Shown piece by piece: positions 1-64,000 of a stretch of DNA of 64,000 nt. The stretch is from Micrococcales bacterium (lineage in GTDB: Bacteria; Actinomycetota; Actinomycetes; Actinomycetales; Dermatophilaceae), in the NCBI GenBank assembly GCA_021287075.1, contig JAJTBD010000007.1, forward strand, positions 29,498 to 93,497, given 5' to 3'. The notes under the pieces were generated by a model. It was not told the origin of the DNA and did no database searches. It saw only the letters and a list, made by a program, of their open reading frames with translations. Each line of letters begins with the position of its first letter. The first letter of the stretch is position 1. The translations under genes and the position numbers were made by a program.

Positions 1-312
1 CTCGGCGCCGGTCTCGCGGGCCACCTCGGCCAGGGCGCGGGTGTGGTCCCAGTGCTGGTGGGTGGTCACGAGGTGGTCGAGCCGGCCGGTGCCCTCGGCG
101 ATGAGCGCCATGACGCGCTCGGGGTCGTCGGCGGCGTCGATGAGCAGCTGCTCGCCGGTGGCAGCGTCGGTGAGCAGATAGACGTTGTTGTGCATGTCCG
201 AGACCGACATCTTGCGGATCGTCAGGTGCGGCAGCTCGCGGACACTGCTCCGGCCGCCCGGCGTGACCTCGGGGCTGTAGCCGTCGGCCGGGGCGGTGGT
301 GGGCTCGCTCAT
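1..312 (-). CDS. MBL-fold metallo-hydrolase, N-terminal 104 codons (gene runs off the window start)
   Basis: Reverse-strand translation from ATG (312-310) gives [12 protein letters not shown]...[17 protein letters not shown], which carries the HxHxDH metallo-beta-lactamase motif. It is missing from the ORF track because the window edge truncates it. Confidence 0.75.
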
Positions 313-378
313 CTCGTCCTCCTGTGCTGGTCGGTAACTGCCCCCGACGCTACCGGGTGCCCCCGGACAGTGATGTCG

Positions 379-450
379 TATGCCGCGTGACGGGTCCTGC
401 GCAGCCCACCCGCCGGGGTGGCGTTCGCCCGCAGCGCAGCCACGCGGCAT
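379..450. repeat. Long-range inverted repeat ATGCCGCGTG / CACGCGGCAT (10-bp arms, 51-nt spacer) made of the window-wide motif
   Basis: Arms at 380-389 and 441-450 are exact reverse complements. An inner hairpin CCACCC-gccg-GGGTGG lies between them. The repeat sits immediately upstream of the uvrA promoter motif. Confidence 0.45.
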
Positions 451-455
451 TCGGC

Positions 456-477
456 TGTCGGTGGGCCCGCATAGCAT
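456..477 (+). promoter_or_regulatory. RecA-NDp / PafBC-type DNA-damage promoter motif for uvrA
   Basis: TGTCGGTG (456-463), then 8 nt, then TAGCAT (472-477) matches the published tTGTCRgtg-N8-TAnnnT motif. The GTG at 484 follows the -10 by 6 nt, consistent with a leaderless transcript. Confidence 0.5.
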
Positions 478-483
478 TGACGG

Positions 484-3623
<3,140 letters not shown>

Positions 3624-3627
<4 letters not shown>

Positions 3628-4208
3628 CCGGTCCGGGCACCGCGGCATACCGCGTCCGCACCGAGCGGGCCGGGGACCACGCGGCCGTCCGCGCGGTCAC
3701 GGCGGCGGCATTCGCCGAGGCGCAGTTCCAGGCGCCGCCGGTCGAGCCCGACGGCGCCCCGGGCGAGGCCACCCTTGTCGGCTGGCTGCGTGCCGACGCG
3801 GCTGGCTTCGTGCCAGAGCTGTCGGTGGTCGCCGTCGCGCCAGGCGGTGAGGTCGTCGGGCATGCCATCGCCACACGGGGCGGCTTCGACGGCGAGTCCT
3901 CTTCTGTCCCAGCGCCGCTCGGGCTCGGGCCGGTGAGCGTGCTGCCGCAGTGGCAGGGGCGCGGCATCGGGTCGGGGCTGGTGCGCGAGGTCCTCGCCCG
4001 GGCTGACGCGCTCGGTCACCCCGTCGTCGTCCTCGTGGGAGACCCGGCCTTCTACTCCCGCCTTGGCTTCGTGCCGGCGGTGCAGCTCGGCATCCCCGCA
4101 CCTGTCCCCGAGTGGGTCGAGGTCTACCAGGCGACCCCGCTGTCGGCCTGGGGCGGCGGCGACGTCCCTCGCCGCTTCCGCTACGCCGCGCCGTTCGACC
4201 GGCTCTGA
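3624..4208 (+). CDS. GNAT family N-acetyltransferase
   Basis: 194-aa ORF whose GTG start overlaps the uvrA stop (GTGA). The [11 protein letters not shown] segment resembles the GNAT acetyl-CoA binding motif. Confidence 0.65.
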
Positions 4209-4226
4209 TCCGGCTCCCACACGCGC

Positions 4227-4264
4227 GATGAGGGGTATGCCGCGCACGCGGCATACCCCTCATC
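4227..4264. terminator. 38-bp near-perfect palindrome, bidirectional terminator candidate between convergent GNAT and livF
   Basis: GATGAGGGGTATGCCGCG-CA-CGCGGCATACCCCTCATC has exact 18-bp arms built from an inverted pair of the GTATGCCGCG motif. Confidence 0.7.
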
Positions 4265-4282
4265 GTCGGGTGTGGCGGTGTG

Positions 4283-4987: not shown

Positions 4988-4992
4988 GGGGC

Positions 4993-5820: not shown

Positions 5821-7514
5821 CTCACATCCTCCAGGTGCCAGTCCTCGACCTCTTCGGCCAGGGATTCGTCCTCGTCATGGAACTCCAGCTGACGGCGCCG
5901 GCTCGCGACCAGGCCCTCCGGCCGGAAGCGCATCATCAGCACGAGCAGCAGGCCGAACAGCAGCAGGCGGTACTCGCTGAAGAAGCGCAGCTTCTCGGGC
6001 ATGAGCTTGAGGATCGTGGCGCCGATGAGGACGCCCGCGATCGTGCCCATGCCGCCGAGGACGACGGCCGCGAGCAGGAAGGCCGACTCGAGGAAGAGGT
6101 ACTGGTCGGGCGAGACCGCGCTGTCCTGGTGGGCCTTGATCGTGCCCGCCAGACCGGCGAGGAAGGCGCCGCCGGCGAACGCGAGCAGCTTGAGGCCGAA
6201 GACGTTGACGCCCATGGCCTCCGCGGCCCGCTCGTCCTCCCGGATGGCGACCCAGCCACGGCCGATGCGGCTGTTGTTGAGTCGGGTGAAGACCAGGATG
6301 ATGAAGCCGATCAGCAGCAGCAGGATGAAGTAGTAGTTGCTGAACCGGCCCAGCGGGATGCCGAAGACATTGTGGGTGTCGCCGAAGTTGAACGACCCGA
6401 TCTGGAGGTCCGGGATGCCGGGGATGCCGTTGGGCCCGTTGGTCAGCTTGGGCCCGTTGTTGCCGTCCAGGTTGAACATGGCCAGTCGGAAGATCTCACC
6501 GAAGGCGAGGGTCACGATGGCCAGGTAGTCGCCGGACACCCGCAGGGTGGGGGAGCCGATGATCAGGCCGAAGATCGAGGCCACGATGGCACCGATCAGC
6601 ATCGTCACCAGGAAGGGCGGCTTCCAGCCGATCGTGGCGAAGGCGGAGTTCGACATCATCGCGCCGATGTAGGCGCCCGACCCGAGGAAGGCGATGTAGC
6701 CCAGGTCGAGCAGGCCGGCGAGGCCGACGACGATGTTGAGGCCGATGGCCGTGGCCGCGAAGATCAGCACCTGCGTGGCGATCGACATGTTGGCGTCCGA
6801 GCCGTTCTGGGTGAACGGGAAGAGGAATGCCACCGCGAATGCCGCGAGCGTCAGCACGTGCTTGTGGCGCTGGGCCACGTGGCCGAACCAGGTGAAGAAC
6901 CCCGAGCGGGCCAGGCCCATGCTGAGGGCGATGATGAAGGCCAGCCCGAGCACGAACAGCCAGGCGTCGTCCTGGTTGAGCAGGTATGCCGCGAGAAAGA
7001 GGACCGCGGCCATCGACAGGGCGATCACCAGGATCTCGGCCCAGCCGGGGATGCGGGCACTGTGCATCTGGCCGAGCTCGCGCTGCGGCACGAAGCGCGA
7101 GCCGACGAACATCAGCAGCGCGCCGACGAGTGCGATCCAGCCGCCCTCGTTGACGTTGACCAGGCCGCCGGCCTCGGTCGCGATGGCCGCGAGGACGAGC
7201 GCGACGAAGACGAGCACGCCGGTGCTCAGCGCCCGCAGGCCCAGGGCCACGTCGAGCCAGTTGCCCACGCGGCGCAGCGGACCGCGGTCCATGAGCGCGA
7301 AGGCCACGCCGAGGGCCCCGAGGACCATCGCCATGATCTGCACGCCGACCGGCCAGAAGCGGATCGAGATGTCACCGAGGATGCGGTCGTCATAGGACCA
7401 CGAGAGCAGGCCGCTGACGAGCAGCAGCGCTGAGCCGAGCAGCGCGAGCGGCCAGCCCTTGGCGGCGTGCTTCGCGCGCGTCTCGTCGGAGAGGGTGGGG
7501 AGTGCGTACCTCAT
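5817..7514 (-). CDS. livM: Branched-chain amino acid ABC transporter permease LivM (with N-terminal transmembrane extension)
   Basis: Polytopic membrane ORF. The ATG at 7514 overlaps the livH stop (ATGA), and the stop overlaps the livG start. I discounted the longer ORF to 7592. Confidence 0.85.
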   Translation of the reverse strand: MRYALPTLSDETRAKHAAKGWPLALLGSALLLVSGLLSWSYDDRILGDISIRFWPVGVQIMAMVLGALGVAFALMDRGPLRRVGNWLDVALGLRALSTGVLVFVALVLAAIATEAGGLVNVNEGGWIALVGALLMFVGSRFVPQRELGQMHSARIPGWAEILVIALSMAAVLFLAAYLLNQDDAWLFVLGLAFIIALSMGLARSGFFTWFGHVAQRHKHVLTLAAFAVAFLFPFTQNGSDANMSIATQVLIFAATAIGLNIVVGLAGLLDLGYIAFLGSGAYIGAMMSNSAFATIGWKPPFLVTMLIGAIVASIFGLIIGSPTLRVSGDYLAIVTLAFGEIFRLAMFNLDGNNGPKLTNGPNGIPGIPDLQIGSFNFGDTHNVFGIPLGRFSNYYFILLLLIGFIILVFTRLNNSRIGRGWVAIREDERAAEAMGVNVFGLKLLAFAGGAFLAGLAGTIKAHQDSAVSPDQYLFLESAFLLAAVVLGGMGTIAGVLIGATILKLMPEKLRFFSEYRLLLFGLLLVLMMRFRPEGLVASRRRQLEFHDEDESLAEEVEDWHLEDVR

Positions 7515-9823: not shown

Positions 9824-9997
9824 TGGTTCCTCCTGGAGAGTGTGTGTCGAGCGGTTGCTCGTTGCGGTGAAAGTAGTCGGGAGTCCCGCGAATGTAATTA
9901 GCTGGGCGGACGACGTGACCGTGTCGTTACCTACGGGGCCGCCCACGGGGCCATCCCGCGCGACGGACGGTCGGGGCACGGCGGCATACTCATCTGC

Positions 9998-10453: not shown

Positions 10454-12559
10454 GTGGCTGACCCGTCGACCTACCGCCCCAAGCCTGGGGAGATCCCCAC
10501 CGACCCTGGGGTCTACCGCTTCCGCGACAAGGACGGGCGGGTCATCTATGTGGGCAAGGCCAAGTCGCTGCGCTCGCGCCTGTCCTCCTACTTCCAGGAC
10601 ATCTCGGCGCTGCACCCGCGCACGGCCACCATGGTCCGCACCGGCGCCAGCGTCGAGTGGACGGTCGTCACCAACGAGGTGGAGGCCCTCCAGCTGGAGT
10701 ACTCCTGGATCAAGGAGTTCGACCCCCGCTTCAACGTCAAATACCGCGACGACAAGTCCTATCCCTATCTCGCGGTGACCCTGGGCGAGGAGTTCCCGCG
10801 CGCCCAGGTGATGCGCGGCGCCAAGCGCAAGGGCACCCGCTATTTCGGCCCCTACACCCACGCGTGGGCGATCCGCGAGACGCTCGACCAGCTGCTGCGG
10901 GTCTTCCCGATGCGCACCTGCTCCACCGGGGTCTTCCGCCGGGCCGGGCAGGTCGGCCGGCCCTGTCTGCTGGGCTATATCGACAAGTGCTCTGCACCCT
11001 GCGTCGGGCGGGTCAGCCCCGAGGAGCACCGCGAGATCGCCGAGGACTTCTGCGACTTCATGGCCGGCAACACCTCACGGTTCGTCCGCCGGCTGGAGCG
11101 CGAGATGAAGGCCGCGGCAGCCGACCTCGAGTTCGAGCGGGCCGCCCGTCTGCGCGACGACCTGGCGGCCCTGGAGAAGGCCCTGGAGCGCTCCGCGGTC
11201 GTCCTCGGCGACAGGACCGACGCCGACGTCTTCGGGCTGGCCGACGACGAGCTCGAGGTCGCCGTGCAGGTCTTCCACGTGCGCGCCGGCCGCATCCGCG
11301 GTCAGCGCGGGTGGGTCGCCGAGAAGGACGCCGCCACGACCGAGGAGGTCGTCGAGGCCCTGCTCCAGCAGGTCTATGGCGGCGAGGGCGGCGAGGACGT
11401 GCCGCGCGAGGTGCTGGTCCCCGTGCTGCCCCCCGACCCCGACTCCGTGCAGGAGTGGCTGGGCGCCCAGCGCGGCTCGCGAGTGCGGCTGCGCGCTCCC
11501 GCCCGGGGCGACAAGAAGGCCCTGATCGAGACGGTCGGGCGCAACGCCCACCAGTCGCTGGCCCGCCACAAGGTCACCCGTGCCGGCGACCTCACCGCGC
11601 GCAGCCAGGCACTCCAGGAGCTCCAGGAGGCCCTCGAGCTGTCCGAGGCGCCCCTGCGCATCGAGTGCTACGACATCTCCCATGTCCAGGGCACCCAGGT
11701 GGTGGGCTCGATGGTCGTCTTCGAGGACGGACTGCCCCGCAAGGGCGAGTACCGCCGGTTCATCGTCCGCGGCGACGCCGGCGCGCCGGCGGACGCCGAG
11801 GACCGTATGCCGCCTGGCGGCGACGCGCCCGCCTCGCCTGCCGAGCAGCGCACCATCGACGACACCGCGGCGATGCACGAGGTGCTGACCCGCCGCTTCC
11901 GCAGGATGGCCGCCGACCGCGCCCAGGCGACCCCCGGCGCCCCACAGGAGGGCGGCCCCGACACGGGCGGGGAGGTCCGGCCCGGCCCCATCGACGAGGA
12001 GACCGGCCGGCCCCGCCGGTTCGCCTACCCGCCCCAGCTGGTCGTCGTCGACGGCGGGCTGCCCCAGGTCAACGCCGCCCAGCGGGTGCTCAGCGAGCTC
12101 GGCATCGCCGATGTGGCGGTCGTCGGCCTGGCCAAGCGCCTGGAGGAGGTGTGGGTGCCCGGACAGGACTTCCCGGTCATCCTGCCGCGCACCAGCGAGG
12201 GGCTCTATCTGCTCCAGCGGGTGCGCGACGAGGCACACCGCTTCGCGATCACCTTCCACCGCGAGCGCCGGTCCAAGGCGATGACCGTCTCCGCCCTCGA
12301 CGGCATACCCGGCCTCGGCGCGGCCCGGCAGAAGGCCCTGCTGCGCCACTTCGGCTCGGTCAAGCGCATCCGGGCGGCCGCGCCCGAGGAGCTGACCGAG
12401 GTCGCTGGCATCGGACCTGCGCTCGCTGCCACGATTGCGGCACAGTTGTCCTCCGGGGAGGCCCCCGCCCCTGCCGTGAATCTCACCACGGGTGAGATCC
12501 TCGAGGACGACCCCCCTGCACCCCCGCACGACACCTTCACCGCTGAGGAGCCGACGTGA
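10454..12559 (+). CDS. uvrC: Excinuclease ABC subunit UvrC
   Basis: GIY-YIG N-terminus ([25 protein letters not shown]), a UVR domain ([13 protein letters not shown]) and a C-terminal HhH ([19 protein letters not shown]). The ORF opens at 10424; I prefer GTG 10454 because of the promoter geometry. Confidence 0.95.
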
Positions 12560-13467: not shown

Positions 13468-14414
13468 CCAGCCCGCGCGTGGTCGCCCTCGGGGGCGGCC
13501 ACGGACTCGCCGCGAGCCTGACGGCGCTGCGCCTGGTCACCGAGCGCATCACTGCCGTCGTCACGGTCGCCGACAACGGCGGCTCCAGCGGCCGGCTCCG
13601 CGAGGAGTTCGACGTCCTGCCGCCGGGCGACCTGCGGATGGCCCTGTCCGCGCTGTGCGACGACAGCGAGTGGGGGCACACCTGGCGCGATGTCCTCCAG
13701 CACCGCTTCGCCGGCGACGGCTCCCTGGCCGGCCACGCCCTCGGCAACCTGCTCATCTGTGCCCTGTGGGAGCTGCACGACGACCCGGTGCACGGTCTCG
13801 ACCTCGTCGGCAGCCTCCTGCGCGCACAGGGGCGGGTGCTCCCCATGGCCGCCGTCCCGCTCGCGATCAACGCCCAGGTGCGCGGTCACGACCCGGCCGC
13901 GCCGGGCCAGGTCGCCACGGTGCAGGGGCAGGTCGCGGTCGCCACGACCAAGGGCACCGTCGAGAGCATCCAGCTGGTGCCACAGGACCCCCCGGCCCGC
14001 CCCGAGACCGTCCAGAGCGTCCTCGACGCCGACTGGATCGTGCTCGGCCCGGGCAGCTGGTTCACCTCCGTCATGCCCCACCTCCTCGTGCCCGAGCTCC
14101 GCTCCGCGATGATCGACACCTCCGCCCGTCGGCTGCTGACGCTCAACGTCGAGCACTCAGGTGAGACAGCGGGATTCAGCTCGGCGCAGCACCTCGAGAC
14201 GCTGGCCTCCCACGCGCCCGACTTCCGGCTCGACGTGGTCCTGGCCGACCCCCGCGTCATCGACAACGAGCGCTCGCTGCGCGCGGCCGCCCGCGAGCTC
14301 GGCGCGACCCTGGTGGTGAGCGAGGTCGCCAAGCCCGGACGGCGCGGACACCACGACACGCTGCGGCTCGCCGCGGCATACCGCGACATCATGGGGACCC
14401 CCGACGGGCGCTAG
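13464..14414 (+). CDS. yvcK: YvcK/CuvA family gluconeogenesis factor (CofD-like)
   Basis: 316-aa ORF with [10 protein letters not shown]...[14 protein letters not shown], typical of the YvcK family. It overlaps the rapZ stop. Confidence 0.9.
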
Positions 14415-15561: not shown

Positions 15562-16629
<1,068 letters not shown>

Positions 16630-16721: not shown

Positions 16722-17930
16722 TTGAAGACCATCGCTGACCTCGGCGACCTGCGCGGCAAGCGCGTGCTCGTCCGGTCCGACCTCAACGTGCCGCTCGACG
16801 GCACGACGATCACCGACGACGGCCGGATCCGCGCCTCGGTCCCCACGATCAAGCAGCTGGCCGACGCCGGCGCGCGCGTCATCGTCACCGCCCACCTCGG
16901 CCGCCCCAAGGGCGCCCCGGAGGAGAAGTACTCCCTCAAGCCGGTCGTCGGCCGCCTCGGCGAGCTGCTCGGCCAGGACGTCGCCTTCGCCACCGACACC
17001 GTCGGCGAGTCGGCCAAGGCCACCGTCGAGGGCCTCCAGGACGGCCAGGTCGCGCTCCTGGAGAACCTGCGCTTCAACGCCGGTGAGACCAGCAAGGACG
17101 AGGGGGAGCGCAAGGCCTTCGCCGAGCAGCTCGCGTCCCTCGCCGACGCCTATGTCTCCGATGGCTTCGGCGTCGTGCACCGCAAGCAGGCCTCCGTCTA
17201 TGACATCGCCCAGATCCTGCCGGCCGCCATGGGCGGCCTGGTCCAGAACGAGGTCGAGGTCCTCAAGCGCTTGACCGAGGACCCCGCGCGGCCGTATGCC
17301 GTGGTGCTCGGCGGCGCCAAGGTCGCCGACAAGCTCGGCGTCATCGACAACCTGATGAAGACGGCCGACCGCCTCGTCATCGGCGGCGGCATGGTCTTCA
17401 CCTTCCTCAAGGCGCAGGGCCACGAGGTCGGCAAGTCCCTCCTCGACGCCGAGCAGCTCGAGACGGTCAAGGGCTATCTCGACAAGGCTGCCGAGACGGG
17501 TGTGGAGATCGTCCTGCCCGTCGACGTCGTCGTCAACGACGAGTTCGCCGCCGAGGGCGACATCCGCACCGTCGCCGCCGACCAGATCCCGGCCGACGCG
17601 ATGGGCCTGGACATCGGCCCCAAGTCCGCCGAGCTCTATGCCGGCAAGCTGGCCGACTGCAAGACGGTCTTCTGGAACGGCCCCATGGGCGCCTTCGAGA
17701 TGGAGCCCTTCGCGGCCGGCACCAAGGCCGTCGCACAGGCCCTGGTCGACGCGACCGCCAATGGCGCGCTCACCGTGGTCGGCGGTGGCGACTCCGCGGC
17801 CGCCGTCCGTCAGCTCGGCTTCTCCGACGACCAGTTCGGCCACATCTCCACCGGCGGCGGCGCCTCGCTCGAGTACCTCGAGGGCAAGGAGCTCCCGGGC
17901 GTCGCGATCCTCACGGGGGAGTCGGCATGA
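16722..17930 (+). CDS. pgk: Phosphoglycerate kinase
   Basis: The TTG at 16722 follows AAAGGGAG. The protein begins [25 protein letters not shown], a classic Pgk N-terminus; the ORF opens at 16653. Confidence 0.95.
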
Positions 17931-18724
17931 GCGAGCGCATCCCGCTGATGGCGGGCAACTGGAAGATGAACCTCGACCATCAGCAGGGCACCCACCTCGT
18001 GCAGAAGCTCGACTGGACCCTGCGCGACGGCAAGCACGACTTCGGTGCCGTCGAGGTCGCGGTCATTCCGCCCTTCACCGATATCCGCTCGGTGCAGACC
18101 CTGGTCGACGGAGACAAGCTCCAGCTCGTCTATGGCGCCCAGGACCTCTCCCAGCACGACGAGGGCGCCTACACCGGCGAGATCTCCGGTGCCTTCCTGG
18201 CCAAGCTCGGCTGCCGCTATGTCCTGGTCGGTCACAGCGAGCGACGTGAGTACCACAACGAGAGCGACGAGCTGCTCAACGCCAAGGTCAAGGCGGCATA
18301 CCGCCACGGCCTGACGCCGATCCTGTGCTGTGGTGAGGCGCTGGATGTCCGCAAGGAGGGCCGCCAGGTCGAGCACGTCCTCGGCCAGATCGAGGCCGAC
18401 CTCGATGGCGTCACCCCCGAGCAGGTCGCCTCGATCGTCATCGCCTATGAGCCCATCTGGGCCATCGGCACCGGTGAGGTGGCCACGCCGGAGGACGCGC
18501 AGGAGGTCTGTGGTGCCATCCGGGGCAAGCTCGCCGAGCTCTACACCCAGGAGATCGCCGACGGCATCCGCATCCTCTATGGGGGCTCGGTCAAGCCGGG
18601 CAACGTCGCCCAGATCATGGGCAAGGACGACGTCGACGGCGCGCTGGTCGGCGGTGCCTCGCTCGTGGTGGACGACTTCGCCTCGATCTGCCGCTACCGC
18701 GACCACATGACGGCGGCCGGCTGA
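17927..18724 (+). CDS. tpiA: Triose-phosphate isomerase
   Basis: 265-aa ORF with [17 protein letters not shown] and [11 protein letters not shown] motifs. It overlaps the pgk stop. Confidence 0.95.
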
Positions 18725-19558: not shown

Positions 19559-20287
19559 TCAGAGGCGACTGGCCGCGGCCTGGTCGAGCAGCCAGAGGGT
19601 GCGCTCCCGGCCGCTGACCCCCGCTGCCGGTGCGTCCACTCGGTCGGCGCCCCCGAGGGCCTTCGCCACGGCCTTGGCCTTGTCATCGCCGGAGACGAGG
19701 AACCACACCTGCTCGGCGCTGCACAGCGCCTCGAAGGTCAGGCTGACCCGGTCGGGTGGGGGCTTGGGGGAGTCGTGGACGGCCGTCGTGGTGCCCGTCG
19801 CCTCCTGGGCCGGGTGCCCGGGAAAGAGGCTCGCGACATGGGCATCGGGTCCGACGCCCAGCATGAGCACGTCAAAGCCAGGCAGCCCGGATCCCCTTGC
19901 GGCCGAGGCGAGCTCGGCGGCATACGCCTCGGCTGACTCCTCGGCCGAGCCGGAGGAGTCGGGGCCGGCGATCGCATGCACATTGCCAGCCGGTATGCCG
20001 CCGAGCCAGCCCTCGAGCGCGGTCGTGTCGTTGCGCTCGGGGTCGCCGGTCGGCAGATAGCGCTCGTCGCCCCACCAGATGTGGAGGCGCTGGGTGTCGA
20101 TCGCGGCGGCGGCGGGGGAGTCGGCGAGCGCGGTCATGAGCGCGGCGCCCATGGAGCCGCCGGTGAGCACGACATCGGCCCGGCCGCGACGGGACTGGGC
20201 GTCGAGGACGGCGGTGATCAGGCGGGCGGCGATGGCCGACCCGAGCGTGGTCTTGTCGGGGTGGACGATCACGAGCGGGCCGGCCAT
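19559..20287 (-). CDS. pgl: 6-phosphogluconolactonase
   Basis: 242-aa ORF with VVLTGGSMG and WGDERY motifs. It is the last gene of the tkt-tal-pgi-zwf-opcA-pgl cluster. Confidence 0.9.
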   Translation of the reverse strand: MAGPLVIVHPDKTTLGSAIAARLITAVLDAQSRRGRADVVLTGGSMGAALMTALADSPAAAAIDTQRLHIWWGDERYLPTGDPERNDTTALEGWLGGIPAGNVHAIAGPDSSGSAEESAEAYAAELASAARGSGLPGFDVLMLGVGPDAHVASLFPGHPAQEATGTTTAVHDSPKPPPDRVSLTFEALCSAEQVWFLVSGDDKAKAVAKALGGADRVDAPAAGVSGRERTLWLLDQAAASRL

Positions 20288-27999: not shown

Positions 28000-28211
28000 G
28001 GGTTCTCCTTCGGAGCGATCCGGTGCTGCGGACAGCACCGGGGGTCGGAACACAGTCGGCACTGAGCCTAGTCGCAGGTCGTGAGGTGCGTCGCATCCTC
28101 CCGGGTGGGCTTGCCGGGGGGCCCGTCCCGCGGCATACCGCGCGGGTAGACTGGGCCGAGCGTCATGACCCGTGGCGCGCCGACCCCGATCCGCCAGCCG
28201 CCGAGGACACT

Positions 28212-39329: not shown

Positions 39330-41379
<2,050 letters not shown>

Positions 41380-43991: not shown

Positions 43992-45590
<1,599 letters not shown>

Positions 45591-45744: not shown

Positions 45745-45779
45745 AGGTATGCCGCGGGGGCCAGCCCCGCGGCATACCT
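45745..45779. terminator. Perfect 15-bp-arm hairpin made of an inverted GTATGCCGCG pair
   Basis: AGGTATGCCGCGGGG-gccag-CCCCGCGGCATACCT, located 17 nt beyond the stop of the TrpB-like gene (45796). Confidence 0.7.
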
Positions 45780-47266: not shown

Positions 47267-49123
47267 ATGAGCATGCAGGGCTGGCAGCTGATGCGCTCGT
47301 TCACCAAGGACGGCTCGGTCCGCGACCGCAGGCTCGCCCCCGGCACCACCCGCCGCGTGATCGGGTATGCCGCGCGCTACCGCCGCACGATCGCCGTCCT
47401 CCTGCTCATCGTCGTCGTCAGCGCCCTCCTCGTCGTCGCCCAGCCCCTCCTGCTGCGCACCCTCATCGACGACGGCATCACCCCCCGCGACCGCGGCCTG
47501 GTCGTGCGGCTCTCGCTGCTGGTGGCGCTGCTCGCACTGCTCGATGCCGCCTCGTCGATCCTCCAGCGCTGGCTGTCGGCACGCATCGGGGAGGGGCTGA
47601 TCGCCGACCTGCGCACCGAGGTCTTCGGCCATGTGCTGCGCCAGCCGATCGCCTTCTTCACCCGCGCCCAGACTGGCGCCCTGGTCACCCGCCTCAACAG
47701 TGACGTGATCGGGGCGCAGCAGGCGTTCACCTCGGTGCTCACCTCGGTGGTGAGCAACGCGATCTCGCTGGCGCTCATCGTCGCCGCGATGGCGGCGCTG
47801 TCGTGGCAGCTGACCCTCGCCTCGCTGCTGCTGGTGCCCCTCTTCCTCGTCCCGGCCCGCTTCATGGGCCGCCGGCTGGCCGGGCTGACCCACGAGCAGA
47901 TGGGTCTCAACGCCGATCTGGGCAGCCGCATGACCGAGCGTTTCAATGTCGCCGGTGCCCTGCTGGTCAAGCTCTTCGGGTCGCCGGCGCGCGAGGACGA
48001 GGAGTATGCCGCGCGCGCCGACCGGGTGCGCCAGATCGGCGTCACCATCGCGATGAACCGGGCCTTCTTCTTCGTGGGCCTGACGCTGGTCGCCTCGCTC
48101 GCGACGGCCATGGTCTATGGCTTCGGCGGCATCATGGCCGTCGACGGGAGCCTGACCATCGGCACCCTGCTGGCCCTGACCGCGCTGCTGGCTCGGCTCT
48201 ATCAGCCGCTGACCGCGCTCTCCAATGTGCGCGTCGACGTCATGACGGCGCTGGTCTCCTTCGAGCGGGTCTTCGAGGTCCTCGACATCCGGCCGCTGGT
48301 CGCCGAGTCGCCCGAGGCACGGCCGGTGCCCGCCGGCCCGGCCCGGGTCGAGCTGGAGGACGTGCGCTTCCGCTATCCGTCTGCCGACGAGGTGTCGCTG
48401 GCCTCCCTCGAGGTGACCGCCTCGGGCGACCGCGGCGCCGGCGAGGACATCCTGCGCGGCATCACCCTCACGGCCGAGCCGGGCCAGCTGGTCGCGCTCG
48501 TCGGGCCGAGCGGTGCGGGCAAGACCACGATCACCTCGCTGGTGGCCAGGCTCTATGACCCGACGGCCGGCACGGTGCGGATCAACGGCCTCGACCTGCG
48601 CGACGCGACGCTCGCGTCGGTCGCCGAGACGGTGGGTGTCGTCACGCAGGAGGCCCACCTCTTCCACGACACGATCCGCGGCAACCTCGCCTATGCGCGG
48701 CCGGGGGCCACCGACGCCGACATGGAGCGGGTCCTGCGGGCCGCCCAGGTGTGGGAGCTGGTCGAACGGCTGCCGGAGGGGCTGGCCACCGTGGTCGGGG
48801 ACCGCGGCCACCGGCTGTCGGGCGGCGAGAAGCAGCGCCTGGCGATCGCGCGCCTGCTGCTCAAGGAGCCCTCTGTCGTCGTCCTCGACGAGGCCACGGC
48901 CCACCTCGACAGCGAGTCGGAGGCCGCCGTTCAGCGAGCGCTCGACGCGGCTCTTGCCGGTCGGACCTCACTGGTGATCGCCCACCGCCTCTCGACGGTG
49001 CGCCATGCCGACCAGATCCTCGTCATCGACCGCGGCCAGATCGTCGAGCGCGGCACCCACGCCGAGCTGCTCACCCAGGGCGGGCTCTATCGGGAGCTGC
49101 ACGACACCCAGTTCTCCGAGTAG
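47267..49123 (+). CDS. ABC transporter, fused permease/ATPase (MsbA-like exporter)
   Basis: 618-aa ORF with six N-terminal transmembrane helices, then [24 protein letters not shown] and [12 protein letters not shown]. Confidence 0.9.
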
Positions 49124-49235: not shown

Positions 49236-50030
49236 TCAGGCGTCCTCCTCGTCCCAGATCCTGGTCTTGCGCGGCTTGCGCGGGCGCTCGGGGCGCTCGC
49301 CCTCGTCCTCGACCTCGTCGAGCCACTCGCGCCGGGCATAGAGCAGGACGACGCCGACGCCGACCGGTGCGGTGCCCCACCACTGGAAGGCATAGGCCTG
49401 GTGCGGGCCGAGATCGGTGTCGGGCGGGTCGAGCGCCTCGGGCCGCTCGGTGACAGCGGCGCCGCCTGCCGCCTGCTCCGACTCCATCAGCAGGTAGCCA
49501 CCCGTGACCGGGCCTGCCGACCTCTCGATGTCGGTGCGGGCGATACTGGCCAGCTGGCCGGCGGGCATCGCCTTGTGCAGGGAGCGCTCAAAGACCCGTG
49601 CCCACCCGGTGACGGTCACGGTGCCGTCGGGGGCGGCCGGGATCGGCGGCAGCGACTCGGCATCCCGGGCGGCCAGCACCCAGCCCCGGTCGACCGGGAT
49701 GGTGCCGGCGTCGGTCTCGAGCAGCTCGATCACCTCGAAGCCGCGCGCGTCCTGGTGGGTGCGGTTGCGCACGACCAGCCGGTCCGCGGCATACCGGCCC
49801 GTCGCGGTGACCCGGCGCCAGTCCTGGTCGAGGGGGAGCGCGGCGGGGGTGAGCACACCGGAGGCGGGGACGGGTGTGGCGCGATAGTGGGCCTCGATGC
49901 GCTGGGCCCGCTCCTGCTTGGCCTCATAGCGGTGCCACTGCCAGCGACCGAGCATGATGCACGCCGCACCGAAGGCGAGCGCCACGGCCAGATAGCCGAG
50001 CCACTTGCGGGTCAGCAGGGTCCGGAGCAC
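49236..50030 (-). CDS. SURF1-like cytochrome oxidase biogenesis protein
   Basis: 264-aa ORF with N- and C-terminal transmembrane helices. The LGRWQWHRYEAK motif is typical of the SURF1 family. Confidence 0.85.
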   Translation of the reverse strand: MLRTLLTRKWLGYLAVALAFGAACIMLGRWQWHRYEAKQERAQRIEAHYRATPVPASGVLTPAALPLDQDWRRVTATGRYAADRLVVRNRTHQDARGFEVIELLETDAGTIPVDRGWVLAARDAESLPPIPAAPDGTVTVTGWARVFERSLHKAMPAGQLASIARTDIERSAGPVTGGYLLMESEQAAGGAAVTERPEALDPPDTDLGPHQAYAFQWWGTAPVGVGVVLLYARREWLDEVEDEGERPERPRKPRKTRIWDEEDA

Positions 50031-50054: not shown

Positions 50055-50294
50055 TCAGCCGGCGTCGGCGGGGATGCCGGAGACGGGGACGACCTCGAGC
50101 GGGAAGCCGCGCACCGACAGAAAGCCCGTCAACTGCTCGCGGTGCTCCTCGCAGGCGAGCCAGACCTTGCGCCGCGTCTCGCCATGGATGCGCGGGTTGC
50201 GCCACAGGAGGGCGTATGCCGCCTCGGCACGACAGCGCTTGGCGCTGCACTCGTGCTCGGAGCGGGTCGCGTCACCGGGCCGCAGAGAGACCAT
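50055..50294 (-). CDS. Small hypothetical protein with CxxxC and CxxH residues
   Basis: 79-aa product MVSLRPGDATRSEHECSAKRCRAEAAYALLWRNPRIHGETRRKVWLACEEHREQL.... Its ATG overlaps the stop of the upstream DUF3099 gene (ATGA), which argues for real translation. Confidence 0.5.
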   Translation of the reverse strand: MVSLRPGDATRSEHECSAKRCRAEAAYALLWRNPRIHGETRRKVWLACEEHREQLTGFLSVRGFPLEVVPVSGIPADAG

Positions 50295-56147: not shown

Positions 56148-56927
56148 TCAGGCCGGGCGCCACCCGGCGATGACCGCGCAGGCCGCGTTGGTCGCGTCGG
56201 CGAGCACCTGCTCCGAGGTCGCCAGCAGGGAGGTCAGCAGCGCCCCTCGCCGGGCCGACGTGCCCGCGTCGAGGGCGCCGTCAGAGGCCGTGAGCCCCGT
56301 CTCGGCGAGCCGGGAGACCGTGCCCGCCAGCGAGATCACCCGCGCATGACGAGCCGGTATGCCGTCGGGCAGCCCCCAGCGCGTCTCCAGCCGCGCCTCG
56401 GCCAGCTCCGCGGCCGCCGACCCGAGGAAGGGCTGGCCGCCCGCCGCCTCGAGGGAGTCGGTGGCGTCCATCAGCGCCGAGCGCAGGGTGCGCTCGAGCG
56501 GGCTGACCTCGAGCGCCTCGACCACGTGACGCGGCATCGGCTCGGCGTCGAAGCGCTGCCAGCCGACCCGCCACCCCTCGTCGCCGGGGGAGCCATAGGC
56601 CGCCAGCCGCGGCACCAGCACCCCGCCGATGCCCGGCACCACGAGGCACTCGCCCGCCTCGACCGCCGCGCCGAGGCCCTCCGGTGAGGTCCGCGGCATA
56701 CCGGCGGTGCGGCCGGGTCCGGGGAGCGCCACCAGGAGCGCCTGCTCGCCGAGCTCGCCCCAGGTGGTCAGCACCTGCCAGCCATCGTCGAGGTGGTCGA
56801 CGTCGGGCAGCGCGTGCGCGACCGCGGCGGGCACCTCGGAGCCGTCGCGCCAGGCCCGCGTGACCCACAGCGACAGACGCACGGAGGCGGGGAGCTCGGG
56901 CACGCGCACATCGTAGTTGCGGGTCAA
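56148..56927 (-). CDS. Hypothetical protein, no recognisable domain
   Basis: 259-codon ORF with a TTG start as given in the track. Composition is coding-like but I found no motif. The start is uncertain because a promoter for the divergent gene sits only 2 nt away. Confidence 0.45.
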   Translation of the reverse strand: MTRNYDVRVPELPASVRLSLWVTRAWRDGSEVPAAVAHALPDVDHLDDGWQVLTTWGELGEQALLVALPGPGRTAGMPRTSPEGLGAAVEAGECLVVPGIGGVLVPRLAAYGSPGDEGWRVGWQRFDAEPMPRHVVEALEVSPLERTLRSALMDATDSLEAAGGQPFLGSAAAELAEARLETRWGLPDGIPARHARVISLAGTVSRLAETGLTASDGALDAGTSARRGALLTSLLATSEQVLADATNAACAVIAGWRPA

Positions 56928-57723: not shown

Positions 57724-57844
57724 CCAGGGCGGCCCCGACATCACTTTCCCGACACGCTTCACCGGCGCCGGACCACCGGAACCGACGCCGCGGCATACCC
57801 GTCATAGGGTGGGAGCACACGCGTCCTAGGGAGGGACCTTCGCG

Positions 57845-59547: not shown

Positions 59548-59582
59548 GGTATGCCGCGCGCCGACCGGGCGCGCGGCATACC
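59548..59582 (+). terminator. Perfect 15-bp-arm hairpin made of an inverted GTATGCCGCG pair, after the SPFH gene
   Basis: GGTATGCCGCGCGCC-gaccg-GGCGCGCGGCATACC, 24 nt after the stop at 59524. Confidence 0.7.
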
Positions 59583-60404: not shown

Positions 60405-61123
60405 CGAGCCTGGCCACGGTGCTGCTGCTGGGGCTGGCGCTGTTCGCCGGGTCCTTCGTGCAGTCCTCGATCGGCTTCGGGATGGCCATCGTGGCGGCGC
60501 CCTTTGTCGTGCTCGCCGCGCCGGAGCTGATGCCGGGAGCGCTGCTGGTCACCACGCTCTCGCTGCCGGTGGTCACCCTCGCCCACGGCCCCCGCGACAT
60601 CGCCTGGCACCCGCTGGGCTGGGCGCTGGCGGCCCGGCTGGTCACCATGCCCCTCGGGGTGGCCGCGGTCGCGATGCTCTCGACCCGGCTGATCAGTGCC
60701 CTCGTCGGCGTGCTCATCCTGATCACCGCGGTGGCGTCGGTGACCACCCTCGACATCCGCCCCACCCGGGGCGCAGCGGTGGCGGCGGGCGCCGTCGCCG
60801 GGGTCTCGGGCACCGCGGCCTCCATCGGCGGGCCCTTCCTGGCCCTGATGCTCCAGCGCGAGTCGCCCGCCCGGCAGCGCGCGAGCCTGGCCGTCTTCCT
60901 CGCCGTCGGCGGGCTCATGGCCCTGGCCGGCCTTGCCGTGGCCGGTCAGTTCCACTGGCAGCAGGCACGTGCGGGCCTGACCTGGCTGCCCTTCATCGCG
61001 GCGGGGTATGCCGCGGCAGCCCCGGCCCGCGCGCACCTCGACCAGGGGCGGATGCAGCGCGTCGTCGCGGCATTCTGCGTCGTCGCCAGCCTCAGTGTGA
61101 TCGCCCGGGCGCTCTTCTCCTAG
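60401..61123 (+). CDS. Second TauE/SafE-like permease
   Basis: 240-aa polytopic ORF with an FVQSSIGFGMA motif. It overlaps the preceding stop by 4 nt. Confidence 0.75.
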   Translation: MTSLATVLLLGLALFAGSFVQSSIGFGMAIVAAPFVVLAAPELMPGALLVTTLSLPVVTLAHGPRDIAWHPLGWALAARLVTMPLGVAAVAMLSTRLISALVGVLILITAVASVTTLDIRPTRGAAVAAGAVAGVSGTAASIGGPFLALMLQRESPARQRASLAVFLAVGGLMALAGLAVAGQFHWQQARAGLTWLPFIAAGYAAAAPARAHLDQGRMQRVVAAFCVVASLSVIARALFS

Positions 61124-61132: not shown

Positions 61133-61951
61133 GTGCCCACGACCATCACCGACCCGACCGATGAGCGCCTCGCCGACTTCGTCGCCCTGACCGACGTGTC
61201 CCTGCGCCGTCGCACCGAGCCCGAGCGCGGGCTCTACATCGCCGAGAGCGAGAAGGTCATCCGCCGGGCCCTGGCGGCCGGTCACCGGCCGCGCGCCTAT
61301 CTCATGGCCGAGCGGTGGCTGAGCGACCTCGCCGACCTCGTCGAGGGCGCCGAGGCCGATGGCGTGCCGGTCTATGTCGGCGCGCACGACGTGATCGAGC
61401 AGCTGACCGGCTTCCACCTGCACAGGGGAGCGCTGGCCTCGATGCAGCGGCCCGAGCTGCCCTCCCTGGCGGACCTGCTCAGCGACGCCCGTCGGGTGCT
61501 CGTCCTGGAGGACATCGTCGACCACACCAATGTGGGCGCGGTCTTCCGCAGCGCGGCGGCGCTGGGTGTCGACGCGGTGCTCGTGACGCCCCGGTGCGCA
61601 GACCCGCTCTATCGCAGGTCGATCCGCGTCTCGATGGGCACCGTCTTCCAGGTGCCCTGGACCCGCATCGACCCGTGGCCGGGCGGCGTCGCGCAGCTGC
61701 GCGAGCTCGGCTTCACCGTCGCCGCGCTGGCCCTCTCGGACGACTCGGTCACCCTCGACGAGCTCGCCGCCGCCGCGCCCGAGCGGCTGGCGCTGGTGCT
61801 GGGCACCGAGGGCGACGGGCTGTCGGCGCACACCGTGGCGGCCGCCGACCTGGTCGTGCGGATCCCGATGGCCGGGGGAGTCGACTCCCTCAACGTTGCC
61901 GCTGCCGGTGCGCTCGCGGCATACGTCCTCTCACCCGAGCGGCTCCGCTGA
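61133..61951 (+). CDS. TrmH/SpoU family RNA 2-prime-O-methyltransferase
   Basis: LVLEDIVDHTNVGAVFRSAAALG, LVLGTEGDGLS and PMAGGVDSLNVAAAGA are the three SpoU motifs. Confidence 0.85.
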   Translation: MPTTITDPTDERLADFVALTDVSLRRRTEPERGLYIAESEKVIRRALAAGHRPRAYLMAERWLSDLADLVEGAEADGVPVYVGAHDVIEQLTGFHLHRGALASMQRPELPSLADLLSDARRVLVLEDIVDHTNVGAVFRSAAALGVDAVLVTPRCADPLYRRSIRVSMGTVFQVPWTRIDPWPGGVAQLRELGFTVAALALSDDSVTLDELAAAAPERLALVLGTEGDGLSAHTVAAADLVVRIPMAGGVDSLNVAAAGALAAYVLSPERLR

Positions 61952-62696
61952 CCCGAGGGCCCGCGCGAAGAGGGCTCGCAGCTCGGCGAAGTGCCGCTCC
62001 GTGGCCTCGGCGTGGAACATCGGGGTGTCGCTCATCGTGTAGCCGTGGGCGGCGCCGGGATAGATCTCGTTGCTGGCGCTGAGCCCGGCCGCGCGCAGCG
62101 CCCTCCCGAGCTCGGCCACATCGTCAGGGCTCATCGACGCGTCCTGGTCGGCGTGACCGAAGACGAACTCCGCTGTGGCGGAGGCGATCCCACGATGGGG
62201 GCTGTCCGGGGCGTCGGTGGCCAGCCGGCCCCCATGGAAGCCCCCGCACGCGGCCACCAGGTCGGGACGCTCGCACGCGGCATACACCGCCAGGCGAGCG
62301 CCCATGCAGTAGCCGGTCACGCCGAGCGGCCCGGCGGCGACCGCGGGCCGCTCGCGCAGCGCCTCGAGATATGCCGCGGCGTCGGCCCGCATGCGCGATG
62401 CCGTCAGCGCGCTCACCCTCGACATCGCGCCGCGCATGAAGGCCTCGCGGGCACCCGGCTCGTGCAGGTCGCCGGTCGGCCGCGTCTCGGCGGCAGTGCC
62501 GCTGCGATAGAGCGTGTTGGGCGCGAGCACCACATAGCCCCAGGAGGCGATACGCGTCGCCATCTCCTCGATGCGAGGGCGCAGGCCGATGGCGTCGATG
62601 CACAGCAGCACGCCCGGCCAGGGCCCCCCCGCCCTCCGGGGGCCGCACAAGGGCCGCCTCGGCCACTCCGTCGGCCGCGGCGACCCGCAGCGTCAC
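61931..62696 (-). pseudogene. Dienelactone hydrolase family gene with a +1 frame break in a homopolymer (pseudogene, or an assembly indel)
   Basis: GTG 62696 opens [24 protein letters not shown]. The hydrolase body (PWPGVLLCIDAIGLRP...GYCMGARL...) continues in another frame after the C7 run at 62624-62630 (G7 on the coding strand). Removing one base fuses them. Confidence 0.65.
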
Positions 62697-63244
62697 CCGG
62701 CGACCTGGTAGTTGCCGGTCACGGTCGCGCGGCCGATCGTGTGGGCGCCGGTGTTGAAGGCGGCCACGGCCGCGCTGACCGAGTCGTCGACGCCCATGTC
62801 GTCGGTGTCGAGGGCGTGCACCGCGAAGATGTAGCGGTGCGGGCGGTCGCCTGCGGGAGGGGCCGCGCCGCCGAAACCCTTGTAGCCGTAGTCGTTCACG
62901 ACATGGAAGGCGCCGTCTGGCAGCGCTGCGCCGTCCTTGGCGCCGGCGCCCTCGGAGAGCTCGGTGACGTCGGCCGGGATGCCGATGACGGTCCAGTGCC
63001 AGAAGCCGGAGGGGGTGGGGGCGTCGGGGTCGAAGCAGGTCACGGCATACCCCTTGGTGCCCTCGGGGGCGCCGCTCCAGGACAGCTGCGGGGAGGTGTT
63101 GCCGCCGGTCATGCCCCAGTCGTCGAAGGCCTGGGCGTCGGGCAGGTCGCCGCCGTCGTCGAACGAGTCGCTCGTGACAGCGAACGCCTCGACCGGGGGG
63201 AGCAGGTCATAGGGGTTGGGTGCGACGGGTCGTTCAAGGCTCAT
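62693..63244 (-). CDS. YbhB/YbcL family PEBP (Raf kinase inhibitor-like) protein
   Basis: 183-aa ORF with [15 protein letters not shown] and [14 protein letters not shown] motifs. Confidence 0.85.
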
Positions 63245-63253
63245 GCCTCGACA

Positions 63254-63655
63254 CTAGCGACTGTGGGCCTGCCCGTGGGCGAGTCGCTGCGCCAGGTCGA
63301 CGGCCTCGGCGCGGGGGTCGGGCGCGACGCCGCCGTGCACCGGGCCCGGCTGGATCACCGTCGAGCGCGGCGCCGACAGCCAGCCGAAGGCAGCGCCCCG
63401 GTCACGCAGACCGCGGGCCGCGCCGCCCTCGTCGACCGTGCGCACCAGCGCGCGGATCCCGTCGAGGACCTCCTCGGCGCAGTCCACGTCGAGGGAGGGG
63501 AATGCCGCGTGCAGCCGGTCGTGGTCGAGCCCGGCCTCCAGCACGAGGACATCGGCGCTCTGGCTGTAGACGACGACGCCGACGTTGAGGAACTCCTCAC
63601 GGTCGACACGGGGGACACAGCGCAGCACGACGTACTGGTAGGGGTGGGCGCTCAT
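63254..63655 (-). CDS. DUF3037 domain protein
   Basis: The ATG at 63655 gives MSAHPYQYVVLRCVPRVDREEFLNVGVVVYS, which matches my memory of the DUF3037 N-terminus. The ATG overlaps the stop of the upstream kinase-fold gene (ATGA). Confidence 0.7.
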   Translation of the reverse strand: MSAHPYQYVVLRCVPRVDREEFLNVGVVVYSQSADVLVLEAGLDHDRLHAAFPSLDVDCAEEVLDGIRALVRTVDEGGAARGLRDRGAAFGWLSAPRSTVIQPGPVHGGVAPDPRAEAVDLAQRLAHGQAHSR

Positions 63656-64000
63656 CGCGGCGCCTCCGGCAGCCATGCCTCGGGGGTCGCCAGACGGGCC
63701 AGCAGCATGTCGGCATAGACGGCGCGCACCTCGGCGGGGGTGGCATGCCCGACCGCCGGCTCGATCCACTCGTCGGGGACGTCGGCGAGGATCTCGGCGA
63801 TCGCCTCGCGGGTGACCAGCGGGGACAGCCGCTCGTGGGTGGCCGGCAGGGCCACCGCGTGCTCGAGCATCACGTGGTCGGAGGCGTCGAAACGCTGTGC
63901 GGCGAAGCGCTCCGGGGACGGCGCCTTGGACGGCCAGGAGTGGTGGAAGTAGAGCGAGGCGCCGTGGTCGATGGCCCATGTAGTGCGGTGCCAGACAAGG
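63652..64000 (-). CDS. C-terminal fragment of a kinase-fold protein (HipA-family-like), running off the window end
   Basis: The reverse frame is open to the window edge: ...LVWHRTTWAIDHGASLYFHHSW...MLEHAVALPATHERL.... The IDHG segment resembles a catalytic loop, and a partnership with DUF3037 is what I recall from annotations. Confidence 0.45.
   Translation of the reverse strand, partial: LVWHRTTWAIDHGASLYFHHSWPSKAPSPERFAAQRFDASDHVMLEHAVALPATHERLSPLVTREAIAEILADVPDEWIEPAVGHATPAEVRAVYADMLLARLATPEAWLPEAPR

Follow-up and report, generated by a model that had tools for sequence, protein, structure and literature searches.

Throughout a 64-kb stretch of actinobacterial chromosome (64,000 nucleotides, hereafter the window), a short DNA word recurs in genes and spacers, in both orientations, and we show that the Dermatophilaceae/Intrasporangiaceae, a family of soil and wastewater bacteria, carry it as a recognition word at the DNA level, the whole of which is actively maintained. 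Its commonest form is the 10-mer GTATGCCGCG and its invariant core the 8-mer GTATGCCG. A whole-word, orientation-independent process that varies between lineages creates and maintains GTATGCCG against compositional pressure, and comparisons among relatives show the A/T positions of the word apparently reverting once that process stops. The word may function as an uptake signal comparable to the DNA uptake sequences (DUS) and uptake signal sequences (USS), a reading that we favor tentatively.

An over-represented word in genes and spacers

The window contained 32 exact copies of the 9-mer TATGCCGCG, 15 forward and 17 reverse, and a G preceded 30 of them to give GTATGCCGCG at a density of 0.47 per kb. 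These counts agree with the original prediction, made by eye, whose coordinates, strand split and leading G were all reproduced and whose estimate of about 50 copies of the 7-mer GTATGCC/GGCATAC compares with the 51 that we counted. That prediction took the 10-mer as the unit; CG is indeed the commonest ending, but the part that does not vary is the 8-mer GTATGCCG (49 copies, 0.77 per kb, 24 and 25 on the two strands), with positions 9–10 reading CG in 30 copies, CC in seven and TG in seven. A second enriched form, GAATGCCGCG, was present in seven copies versus 0.12 expected. GTATGCCG and its extensions ranked first among k-mers at each length from 7 to 12. The flanks of the copies were unrelated, except for a G-rich position −1/−2, which indicates a word with no longer repeat around it.

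The G+C content of the window was 70.96%, close to the approximately 72% assumed in the earlier hand estimate, and the excess estimated from it was borne out: dinucleotide-preserving shuffles gave 0.13 10-mers (maximum two in 100) and the order-3 Markov model 0.24, a 124-fold excess. Genes were called by third-position G+C content and annotated with Pfam, and the 63 called genes were submitted to 500 synonymous-codon shuffles preserving the proteins and the codon usage, including an excess of TAT described below. Genic 10-mers numbered 22 versus 0.58 expected (maximum five in 500 shuffles), about 40-fold, and genic 8-mers 39 versus 3.6. The enrichment, which the original prediction had proposed to set against Markov and codon-shuffled nulls, thus survives both. 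Codon or codon-pair bias was rejected on the basis of the shuffle, and also of the antisense and spacer copies.

Of the 30 10-mers, 22 (about three quarters) are located in called genes, the earlier estimate being about two thirds. Two reading frames predominate, sense TAT-GCC-GCG (Y-A-A or Y-A-V) and antisense GCG-GCA-TAC (A-A-Y), with G-I-P (GGC-ATA-CC) and G-M-P-R as minority frames; in both dominant frames, positions 1, 4, 7 and 10 of the motif are codon third positions, which in the window genes are 94% G+C. The word spells 11 of the 15 Y-A-A, 11 of the 14 A-A-Y and all six Y-A-V tripeptides in the window, although GCA accounts for just 5.5% of Ala codons and ATA for 11 of 828 Ile codons, and these tripeptides are in themselves approximately 2.2-fold commoner than composition predicts (P = 0.003 and 0.006).

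Spacers occupy 5.9% of the window but contain 10 of the 49 core copies, that is, 2.63 per kb compared with 0.65 in genes (fourfold, P = 5e-4). The inverted spacer pairs noticed in the original prediction amounted to three pairs of GTATGCCGCG. Immediately past gene ends, these fold into hairpins that look like terminators (−44 to −54 kcal/mol, z −4 to −10); single intergenic copies showed no structure. No configuration bias of inverted pairs was found (7 versus 6). Among repetitive extragenic palindromic (REP) sequences, bacterial interspersed mosaic elements and miniature inverted-repeat transposable elements (MITEs), it is the gene-end hairpins of the REP type that the intergenic pairs resemble. 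Nevertheless, REP or MITE repeats would be extragenic and at least 20 nt long, whereas 80% of GTATGCCG copies are single, intragenic and read in frame, without flank conservation beyond about 9–12 nt, and we consequently rejected a MITE/REP element.

The window genes also use TAT for 40% of Tyr codons, every other NNT codon reaching 1–12%. This excess is context-dependent (59% before G, 42% before C, 6–9% before A or T) and least marked in genes with high expression (gap 0/8, sufC 0/6); it is common to L020, L048, L050 and L056, other motif-rich genomes being without it, and is left unexplained by ACG or ACGT, for which no depletion was seen. AAT before GT behaves as TAT, with 22 ACATTG words, every copy antisense to a gene. 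The window words ACATTG and TAGGCCT were rejected as separate signals, being codon-context effects with all copies antisense to genes.

Distribution, conservation and dialects among relatives

The closest zwf genes, 84–88% identical, are from Pedococcus, Knoellia, Phycicoccus, Janibacter and Nostocoides (formerly Tetrasphaera), all Dermatophilaceae/Intrasporangiaceae, and the window sequence is present in one public read-set assembly as an identical contig (L001). We compared 80 orthologous zwf loci; the pattern of dialects and losses rests on about 21 kb per genome. The most over-represented 8-mer was GTATGCCG in Knoellia, Phycicoccus, several Pedococcus, N. australiense, Terrabacter, Intrasporangium, Ornithinibacter, Ornithinimicrobium murale and Ca. 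Phosphoribacter, the last having the highest density (1.4–1.5 per kb). The word was absent from the zwf loci of all outgroups of similar G+C (Cellulomonas, Sanguibacter, Kineococcus, Nakamurella and others). A zwf-tal-tkt tree confined it to one clade, the Dermatophilaceae/Intrasporangiaceae, within which it was lost in Janibacter, L021/L044, L016, L026 and L002.

The original prediction considered that a motif confined to the window would remove the signal; instead, the word is genome-wide in the clade. Using 80 metagenomic loci chosen for one 10-mer hairpin each, and masking this hairpin, we counted 324 copies in the remaining 407 kb (0.80 per kb), with extra copies in 27 of the 29 loci measuring 7 kb or more and several matches located far apart on the same 0.67–0.88 Mb contigs. 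The absence of strand skew reported for the window was general, with 198/203 copies on the two strands over 28 zwf loci, 161/163 over the metagenomic loci, and every locus balanced.

The same conserved residues were spelled differently in motif-rich genomes (TAT, ATA or GCA, plus G at the preceding third position) and in motif-poor relatives (TAC, ATC or GCC). These contrasts, CCG TAT GCC GTx versus CCC TAC GCC GTx and GGC ATA CC versus GGC ATC CC, occur in pgk P-Y-A-V, zwf T-Y-A-A, uvrC D-G-I-P and ctaB M-Y-A-V. Orthologous 8-mers in motif-free relatives were CTACGCCG, GTAGGCCG, GTACGCCG or GGATGCC, indicating that positions 1, 2 and 4 have all changed, partly by transversions, and some copies needed amino-acid changes, such as zwf Q-Y-P-A to Q-Y-A-A.

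Copies were conserved between species well above background 8-mers: 27/30 and 27/32 versus 28% for Ca. P. hodrii and Ca. P. baldrii (L048/L050, 83% identity; P = 2e-12), 13/14 versus 55% for L007 and L019 (P = 0.003), and 7/12 versus 20% for the window and L007 (P = 0.004). Over 226 aligned copies, the excess conservation was limited to about 9 nt, with flanks at background. As a control for A/T-ending third positions, we used other such positions outside the word, in a genome with 94% G+C there. TAT was conserved in 55/77 cases (71%) inside the word and in 16/140 (11%) outside (P = 2e-19), GCA in 47% versus 23% (P = 0.002) and GCG in 82% versus 46% (P = 3e-5); ATA was conserved in 85% inside the word, with too few cases outside for comparison.

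On zwf comparison, Pedococcus ginsenosidimutans (L002) is the nearest relative. Copies are almost lacking there, TAT is never used (0 of 48), and the top 8-mer, TACGCCGC, occupies sites that carry the word in relatives. Five of 11 aligned orthologous sites in this genome read GTACGCCG, which would be either a fossil of the word after a T to C change or a switch to a C4 dialect. High GTACGCCG was also found in L049 and L075 (6.5–7 per 10 kb). In Terrabacter with low density, copies were kept less than background (1/5 and 1/3 versus 58%), which suggests a decay in progress. Positions 9–10 depend on the lineage, reading CG, TC or CC. The variant GGATGCCG was enriched in L025/L052 and L036 (7.5–10 per 10 kb), mostly where relatives lack GTATGCCG, and was conserved in 56–59% of cases versus 33% for background (P = 0.04); this thinner evidence suggests a separately accumulated dialect rather than decay. 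The TC dialect of Terrabacter and Knoellia, GTATGCCGTC (L004, L014, L031–L040), shares ATGCCGTC with AT-DUS, the neisserial sequence ATGCCGTCTGAA.

Could all this be a passive by-product of codon bias, deamination, a mobile element or adapter sequence, with no process acting on the whole word? We consider it highly improbable. In its favor, the frequency of GTACGCCG falls as that of GTATGCCG rises (Spearman −0.55), being depleted about 8-fold compared with outgroups; the TAT excess is odd; and CGGCATAC lies in the Illumina P7 adapter (CAAGCAGAAGACGGCATACGAGAT), which includes the reverse complement of the word, so that literature matches to the word were only primers or adapters. Against it, the shuffle that keeps the TAT excess still falls far short of the observed count, and the flanks are unrelated. 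Single-site deamination of 5-methylcytosine, from GTACGCCG to GTATGCCG, was rejected as the sole cause because the GTA[CT]GCCG pool is 6–12 times that of outgroups, positions 1 and 2 have changed as well as position 4, including by transversions, and all positions are conserved above matched third-position controls. No methylation signature was seen for ACGT or ACG, ACG tetranucleotides showing no depletion. Adapter contamination was likewise rejected: not one of 1266 copies reaches into adapter sequence by more than 13 nt, and orthologous sites carry copies in frame across dozens of assemblies that were made independently.

Other repeated words were found in some of these genomes. Janibacter L011 and L018, without the word, have their own top 8-mer, GAAGGGGG, with 12–19 copies per 21 kb and a strand skew of approximately 2:1; it is G-rich and recalls the FtsK-orienting polar sequences (KOPS) and SpoIIIE recognition sequences (SRS). 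L016 contains CCGGCAAG ten times, all on one strand. In Nostocoides japonicum (L008), positions 18946–19913 comprise about 15 units of a 64-nt tandem repeat, whose period is not a multiple of three and whose units each contain the inverted 8-mers TACCTCGA and TCGAGGTA; the top word of this species, TCGAGGTA, was thus rejected as a dialect, since it reflects this local array.

Individual copies and gene setting of the window

The window is a stretch of core actinobacterial chromosome, comprising uvrA, a liv-type transporter, uvrC, rapZ, yvcK/cofD-like, whiA, gap-pgk-tpiA-secG and rbpA; then pgl-opcA-zwf-pgi-tal-tkt, ctaB, ctaA, the suf operon and an acVLRF1 gene; and finally fabG/inhA-like genes, serB, glgC, glgA and others. 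Table 1 lists the copies of the word.

Table 1. Position and context of word copies and variants in the window; letters in parentheses after a core copy are positions 9–10.
Feature	Position	Strand	Context
GTATGCCGCG	378..387	+	intergenic, upstream of uvrA
Variant GAATGCCGCG	443..452	-	other six start at 6837 (+), 32562 (+), 34172 (+), 43592 (+), 61066 (-) and 63500 (+)
GTATGCCGCG	1289..1298	+	uvrA, sense, G-M-P-R frame
GTATGCCGCG	3641..3650	-	GNAT gene, antisense, A-A-Y
Inverted GTATGCCGCG pair	4235..4256	4235-4244 +, 4247-4256 -	hairpin core, 20-bp stem, -54 kcal/mol; between convergent genes, looks like a bidirectional terminator
GTATGCCGCG	6984..6993	+	livM-like permease, antisense, A-A-Y
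GTATGCCG (CC)	9982..9989	-	intergenic, divergent genes either side
GTATGCCG (CC)	11805..11812	+	uvrC, sense
GTATGCCG (TC)	12301..12308	-	uvrC, antisense, D-G-I-P as GGC ATA CC; common to at least 16 genomes, outgroups spell ATC or GTx
GTATGCCGCG	14372..14381	-	cofD/yvcK-like gene, antisense, A-A-Y
GTATGCCGCG	15591..15600	-	5' edge of gap; Pfam match starts at residue 18, copy probably upstream of the true gap start
GTATGCCG (TG)	17294..17301	+	pgk, sense, P-Y-A-V; CCG TAT GCC GTx in 29 genomes, CCC/CCG TAC in motif-poor genomes
GTATGCCG (CC)	18294..18301	-	tpiA, antisense, A-A-Y
GTATGCCG (CC)	19918..19925	-	pgl, sense, Y-A-A
GTATGCCG (CC)	19993..20000	+	pgl, antisense, G-I-P
GTATGCCGCG	21502..21511	-	zwf, sense, Q-Y-A-A; most relatives Q-Y-P-A, hence made by amino-acid change
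GTATGCCGCG	21946..21955	-	zwf, sense, T-Y-A-A; TAT in motif-rich genomes, TAC or TTC in L002, Janibacter and outgroups
GTATGCCGCG	27811..27820	+	tkt, antisense, A-A-Y
GTATGCCGCG	28129..28138	-	ctaB 5' part, antisense
GTATGCCGCG	28277..28286	-	ctaB, antisense, A-A-Y
GTATGCCG (TG)	28625..28632	+	ctaB, sense, M-Y-A-V
GTATGCCG (CC)	29467..29474	+	no called gene; Beta-lactamase-family gene there on L001
GTATGCCG (AG)	30691..30698	+	TetR gene, sense
GTATGCCGCG	31258..31267	+	MFS gene, antisense, A-A-Y
GTATGCCG (TG)	33465..33472	-	ctaA, sense, Y-A-V
GTATGCCGCG	35224..35233	-	ABC ATPase gene, sense, Y-A-A
GTATGCCGCG	36019..36028	+	sufR-like gene, sense, Y-A-A
GTATGCCG (GT)	36154..36161	-	sufR-like gene, antisense
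GTATGCCG (TG)	37895..37902	+	sufD, sense, Y-A-V
GTATGCCG (GC)	38471..38478	+	sufD, sense
GTATGCCGCG	40303..40312	-	sufS, antisense, A-A-Y
TATGCCGCG after C (9-mer only)	40931..40939	+	sufS
GTATGCCG (TG)	42395..42402	+	acVLRF1 gene, sense
GTATGCCG (TG)	42590..42597	-	acVLRF1 gene, antisense, G-I-P
GTATGCCGCG	44384..44393	+	ABC-F gene, sense, Y-A-A
Inverted GTATGCCGCG pair	45747..45777	45747-45756 +, 45768-45777 -	hairpin -44 kcal/mol, convergent genes; looks like a terminator
GTATGCCGCG	47365..47374	+	ABC exporter gene, sense, Y-A-A
GTATGCCGCG	48004..48013	+	ABC exporter gene, sense, Y-A-A
GTATGCCGCG	49785..49794	-	SURF1 gene, sense, Y-A-A
GTATGCCG (CC)	50214..50221	+	small open reading frame (ORF), antisense
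GTATGCCG (TC)	56357..56364	+	ORF, antisense, G-I-P
GTATGCCGCG	56692..56701	-	ORF, sense, G-M-P-R
GTATGCCGCG	57789..57798	-	intergenic, single copy, no structure
Inverted GTATGCCGCG pair	59549..59581	59549-59558 +, 59572-59581 -	hairpin -47 kcal/mol, 25 nt past SPFH gene; looks like a terminator
GTATGCCGCG	61006..61015	+	TauE gene, sense, Y-A-A
GTATGCCGCG	61915..61924	-	ORF, antisense, A-A-Y
GTATGCCGCG	62276..62285	-	ORF, sense, Y-A-A
TATGCCGCG after A (9-mer only)	62370..62378	+	
GTATGCCG (TG)	63043..63050	-	ORF, sense, Y-A-V

Competence, pilus and methyltransferase genes were not found by Pfam annotation of the window, where no Vsr-like gene was seen either, and competence genes were absent from every other locus fetched. 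A consensus search for ComEA matched only the helix-hairpin-helix domain of UvrC, and an Rfam scan of the window gave no match. The stretch at 29169–30469 has a lower third-position G+C and was missed by our composition-based gene caller; it contains one core copy, and gene calls on L001 place there a Beta-lactamase-family gene adjoining a TetR gene. The stretch may have been acquired more recently. The acVLRF1 gene, of the actinobacterial/chloroflexal VLRF1-type release-factor family, is located at 42198–42962, directly past the suf operon, and contains two copies of the word.

A possible uptake signal and competing explanations

Published uptake sequences are 9–10 nt long, occur in hundreds to thousands of copies in restricted frames and as terminator inverted repeats, and have dialects that follow phylogeny as well as members of the clade that lack the word. 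The word described here likewise is a specific 8–10-nt sequence at about 0.5–1.5 per kb with equal orientations, is mostly genic in few frames, is denser in spacers with inverted pairs as hairpins, has dialects that follow phylogeny and some members without it, and is conserved copy by copy between species. Its density, strand balance, frames, hairpins, dialects and conservation therefore match the published DUS/USS hallmarks, and the uptake-sequence profile of the original prediction is borne out in each of these features; polar and purely mutational alternatives were rejected. There are also differences. The host is a Gram-positive, high-G+C actinobacterium without an outer membrane or a ComP-type pilin; the word contains A/T in a 71% G+C genome, thus running against mutation and codon pressure; and it does not share the essential CTG core of DUS, only ATGCCGTC being common to AT-DUS and one dialect of the word.

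Two other groups of words deserve comparison. The cyanobacterial highly iterated palindrome HIP1 (GCGATCGC) is also a hyper-abundant octamer, in excess of what codon usage would give and conserved across species; long without a known function, it has recently been tied to transformation efficiency and horizontal transfer. However, HIP1 is a palindrome containing two orphan methyltransferase sites and is reported to be quasi-periodic, whereas GTATGCCG is asymmetric and randomly spaced. Chi, FtsK KOPS, SpoIIIE SRS and TraB repeats are exact 5–8-bp words recognized by DNA-translocating enzymes, over-represented and lineage-specific, and an 8-bp core fits KOPS, SRS and TraB; but these words are strand-skewed per replichore or clustered in clt loci, while the excess of GTATGCCG is far larger and no locus showed a strand skew, for which reason the polar words were rejected.

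Uptake bias ranks first among the explanations because of the match to DUS/USS anatomy, the natural transformation of Micrococcus luteus, from the same order, via Flp/Tad pili and comEA/comEC, and the occurrence of a ComEC-type protein in about 89% of Actinobacteria strains. An uptake apparatus, which in Micrococcales would consist of Flp/Tad pili plus ComEA/ComEC, would bind word-carrying DNA preferentially, and conspecific fragments with the word would then be imported and recombined more often than word-less alleles. Copies would accumulate where the protein tolerates them (Y-A-A/V, A-A-Y, G-I-P, G-M-P-R), and spacers would hold them at a fourfold density, their inverted pairs doubling as terminator hairpins. 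Dialects would result from a change in receptor specificity; if the receptor were lost, the A/T positions would be free to return to G/C, as in the putative fossil GTACGCCG of Pedococcus ginsenosidimutans.

Several observations weigh against uptake bias. The core tolerates no change at positions 3–8, where near-cognates were found three times versus 3.0 expected; decaying uptake-sequence copies are common in Haemophilus, unlike the non-enriched near-cognates here. Copy spacing was indistinguishable from random placement (gap coefficient of variation 0.89 versus 0.97, P = 0.27) and thus no more even than chance, contrary to the even spread claimed in the original prediction. Searching the literature, we found no clade member reported as transformable. 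A phiC31-like temperate module (L086; IMG/VR UViG_3300033075_000436, positions 1–11178), with terminase, portal, protease, capsid, tail and tape measure genes, contains seven GTATGCCG copies in 11 kb (0.63 per kb), including one hairpin; five copies lie outside the hairpin by which the contig was selected versus about 0.45 expected (P = 1e-4), and this host-like density would also be explained if the process affected whatever DNA is resident. In the other direction, an uptake word should be rare in foreign DNA such as phages, and TJE1, a virulent phage of Tetrasphaera, contains only two copies in 49 kb versus 0.6 expected. The hairpin is present in only six of 2.9 million viral contigs; overall, the phage evidence is ambiguous. 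Finally, a drive by repair or methylation, or selection of binding sites, would predict the same footprint, which leaves a place for the alternatives that the original prediction had named. Competence genes are to be expected in most Actinobacteria, and their mere presence would not separate these explanations.

A HIP1-like drive, in which a methyltransferase, a nicking enzyme or mismatch repair recognizes the word or near-cognates, settles mismatches or heteroduplexes in favor of the cognate form and spreads the word by biased conversion within the cell, no uptake being involved, is unlikely, although it carries appreciable weight. It would account for the conservation of the whole word, the depletion of GTACGCCG and the "perfect or nothing" pattern of near-cognates, as well as for a resident temperate phage at host density and a virulent one below it, and HIP1 itself is a precedent, being 15–300-fold over-represented, conserved and tied to orphan methyltransferases. 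Yet no repair system is known that would push three positions of an asymmetric 8–10-mer to A/T where codon third positions are 94% G+C, very short patch repair in its classic logic restores C and not T, the word is not palindromic, and neither the gene content of the window nor its ACG tetranucleotides point to such enzymes. Rather unlikely, too, is that each copy is under weak selection as a binding site or "self" mark for an abundant chromosomal protein, such as a nucleoid organizer or a regulator of a nuclease or recombinase that would be Chi-like without polarity. The constraint on about 9 nt with flanks at background, the strong conservation between species, a specificity that follows the clade and shifts by lineage, and the presence of the word in the temperate and not in the virulent phage are all in its favor. 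But Chi, KOPS and SRS are polar to replication, nucleoid proteins usually prefer degenerate A+T-rich sites, selection would have to beat a strong G+C pressure at each of several thousand sites, and repeated complete loss within the clade speaks against an essential role. Lastly, the word could be read on the export side by an FtsK/TraB-like conjugative double-stranded DNA translocase of an integrative element, pumping word-carrying chromosomal segments into recipients, where they would be recombined more often. The core has exactly the 8-bp length that TraB recognizes at Streptomyces plasmid clt loci, and FtsK and SpoIIIE also read 8-bp words; this mode of transfer is typical of Actinobacteria, and its population-genetic outcome would equal that of uptake bias. 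We nonetheless consider it improbable, because clt sites are direct repeats clustered locally, whereas GTATGCCG is scattered in either orientation, because the sequences examined showed no TraB-like gene, and because unicellular Dermatophilaceae are not known for such conjugation.

No paper that we found connects this clade with the word or with an uptake sequence of any kind, and a preprint from October 2025 still restricts uptake sequences to Neisseriaceae and Pasteurellaceae, both Gram-negative, which agrees with the earlier statement that none had been described for a high-GC actinobacterium. The word might, then, represent the first uptake-signal-like system outside Proteobacteria, read by the receptor of a Tad/ComE-type uptake or transfer apparatus; this is a possibility that we regard as serious but still short of even. 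If true, it would be a third independent case, now among Gram-positive Actinobacteria, implying that self-preferring DNA exchange has evolved repeatedly, and would involve a new kind of DNA receptor, given the lack of a ComP-type pilin and of an outer membrane. It would also predict natural transformability in organisms without genetic tools, for which placing the word on donor DNA could be a useful trick. The question is directly testable, since there are cultured strains with the word (Knoellia, Phycicoccus, Terrabacter, Nostocoides) and without it (Janibacter, Pedococcus ginsenosidimutans).

The word can also serve as a k-mer marker for genome binning and for detecting foreign DNA. Even if it results from a repair drive or is a binding site, the finding stands and offers a natural experiment on molecular drive, with an asymmetric word maintained at thousands of sites against 94% third-position G+C, and with fossils and dialects in relatives. 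If it is an uptake signal, a barrier to gene flow between species would arise wherever a lineage switched dialect or lost the word, in a clade that includes the main phosphorus-removing organisms of wastewater (Ca. Phosphoribacter, Tetrasphaera/Nostocoides).

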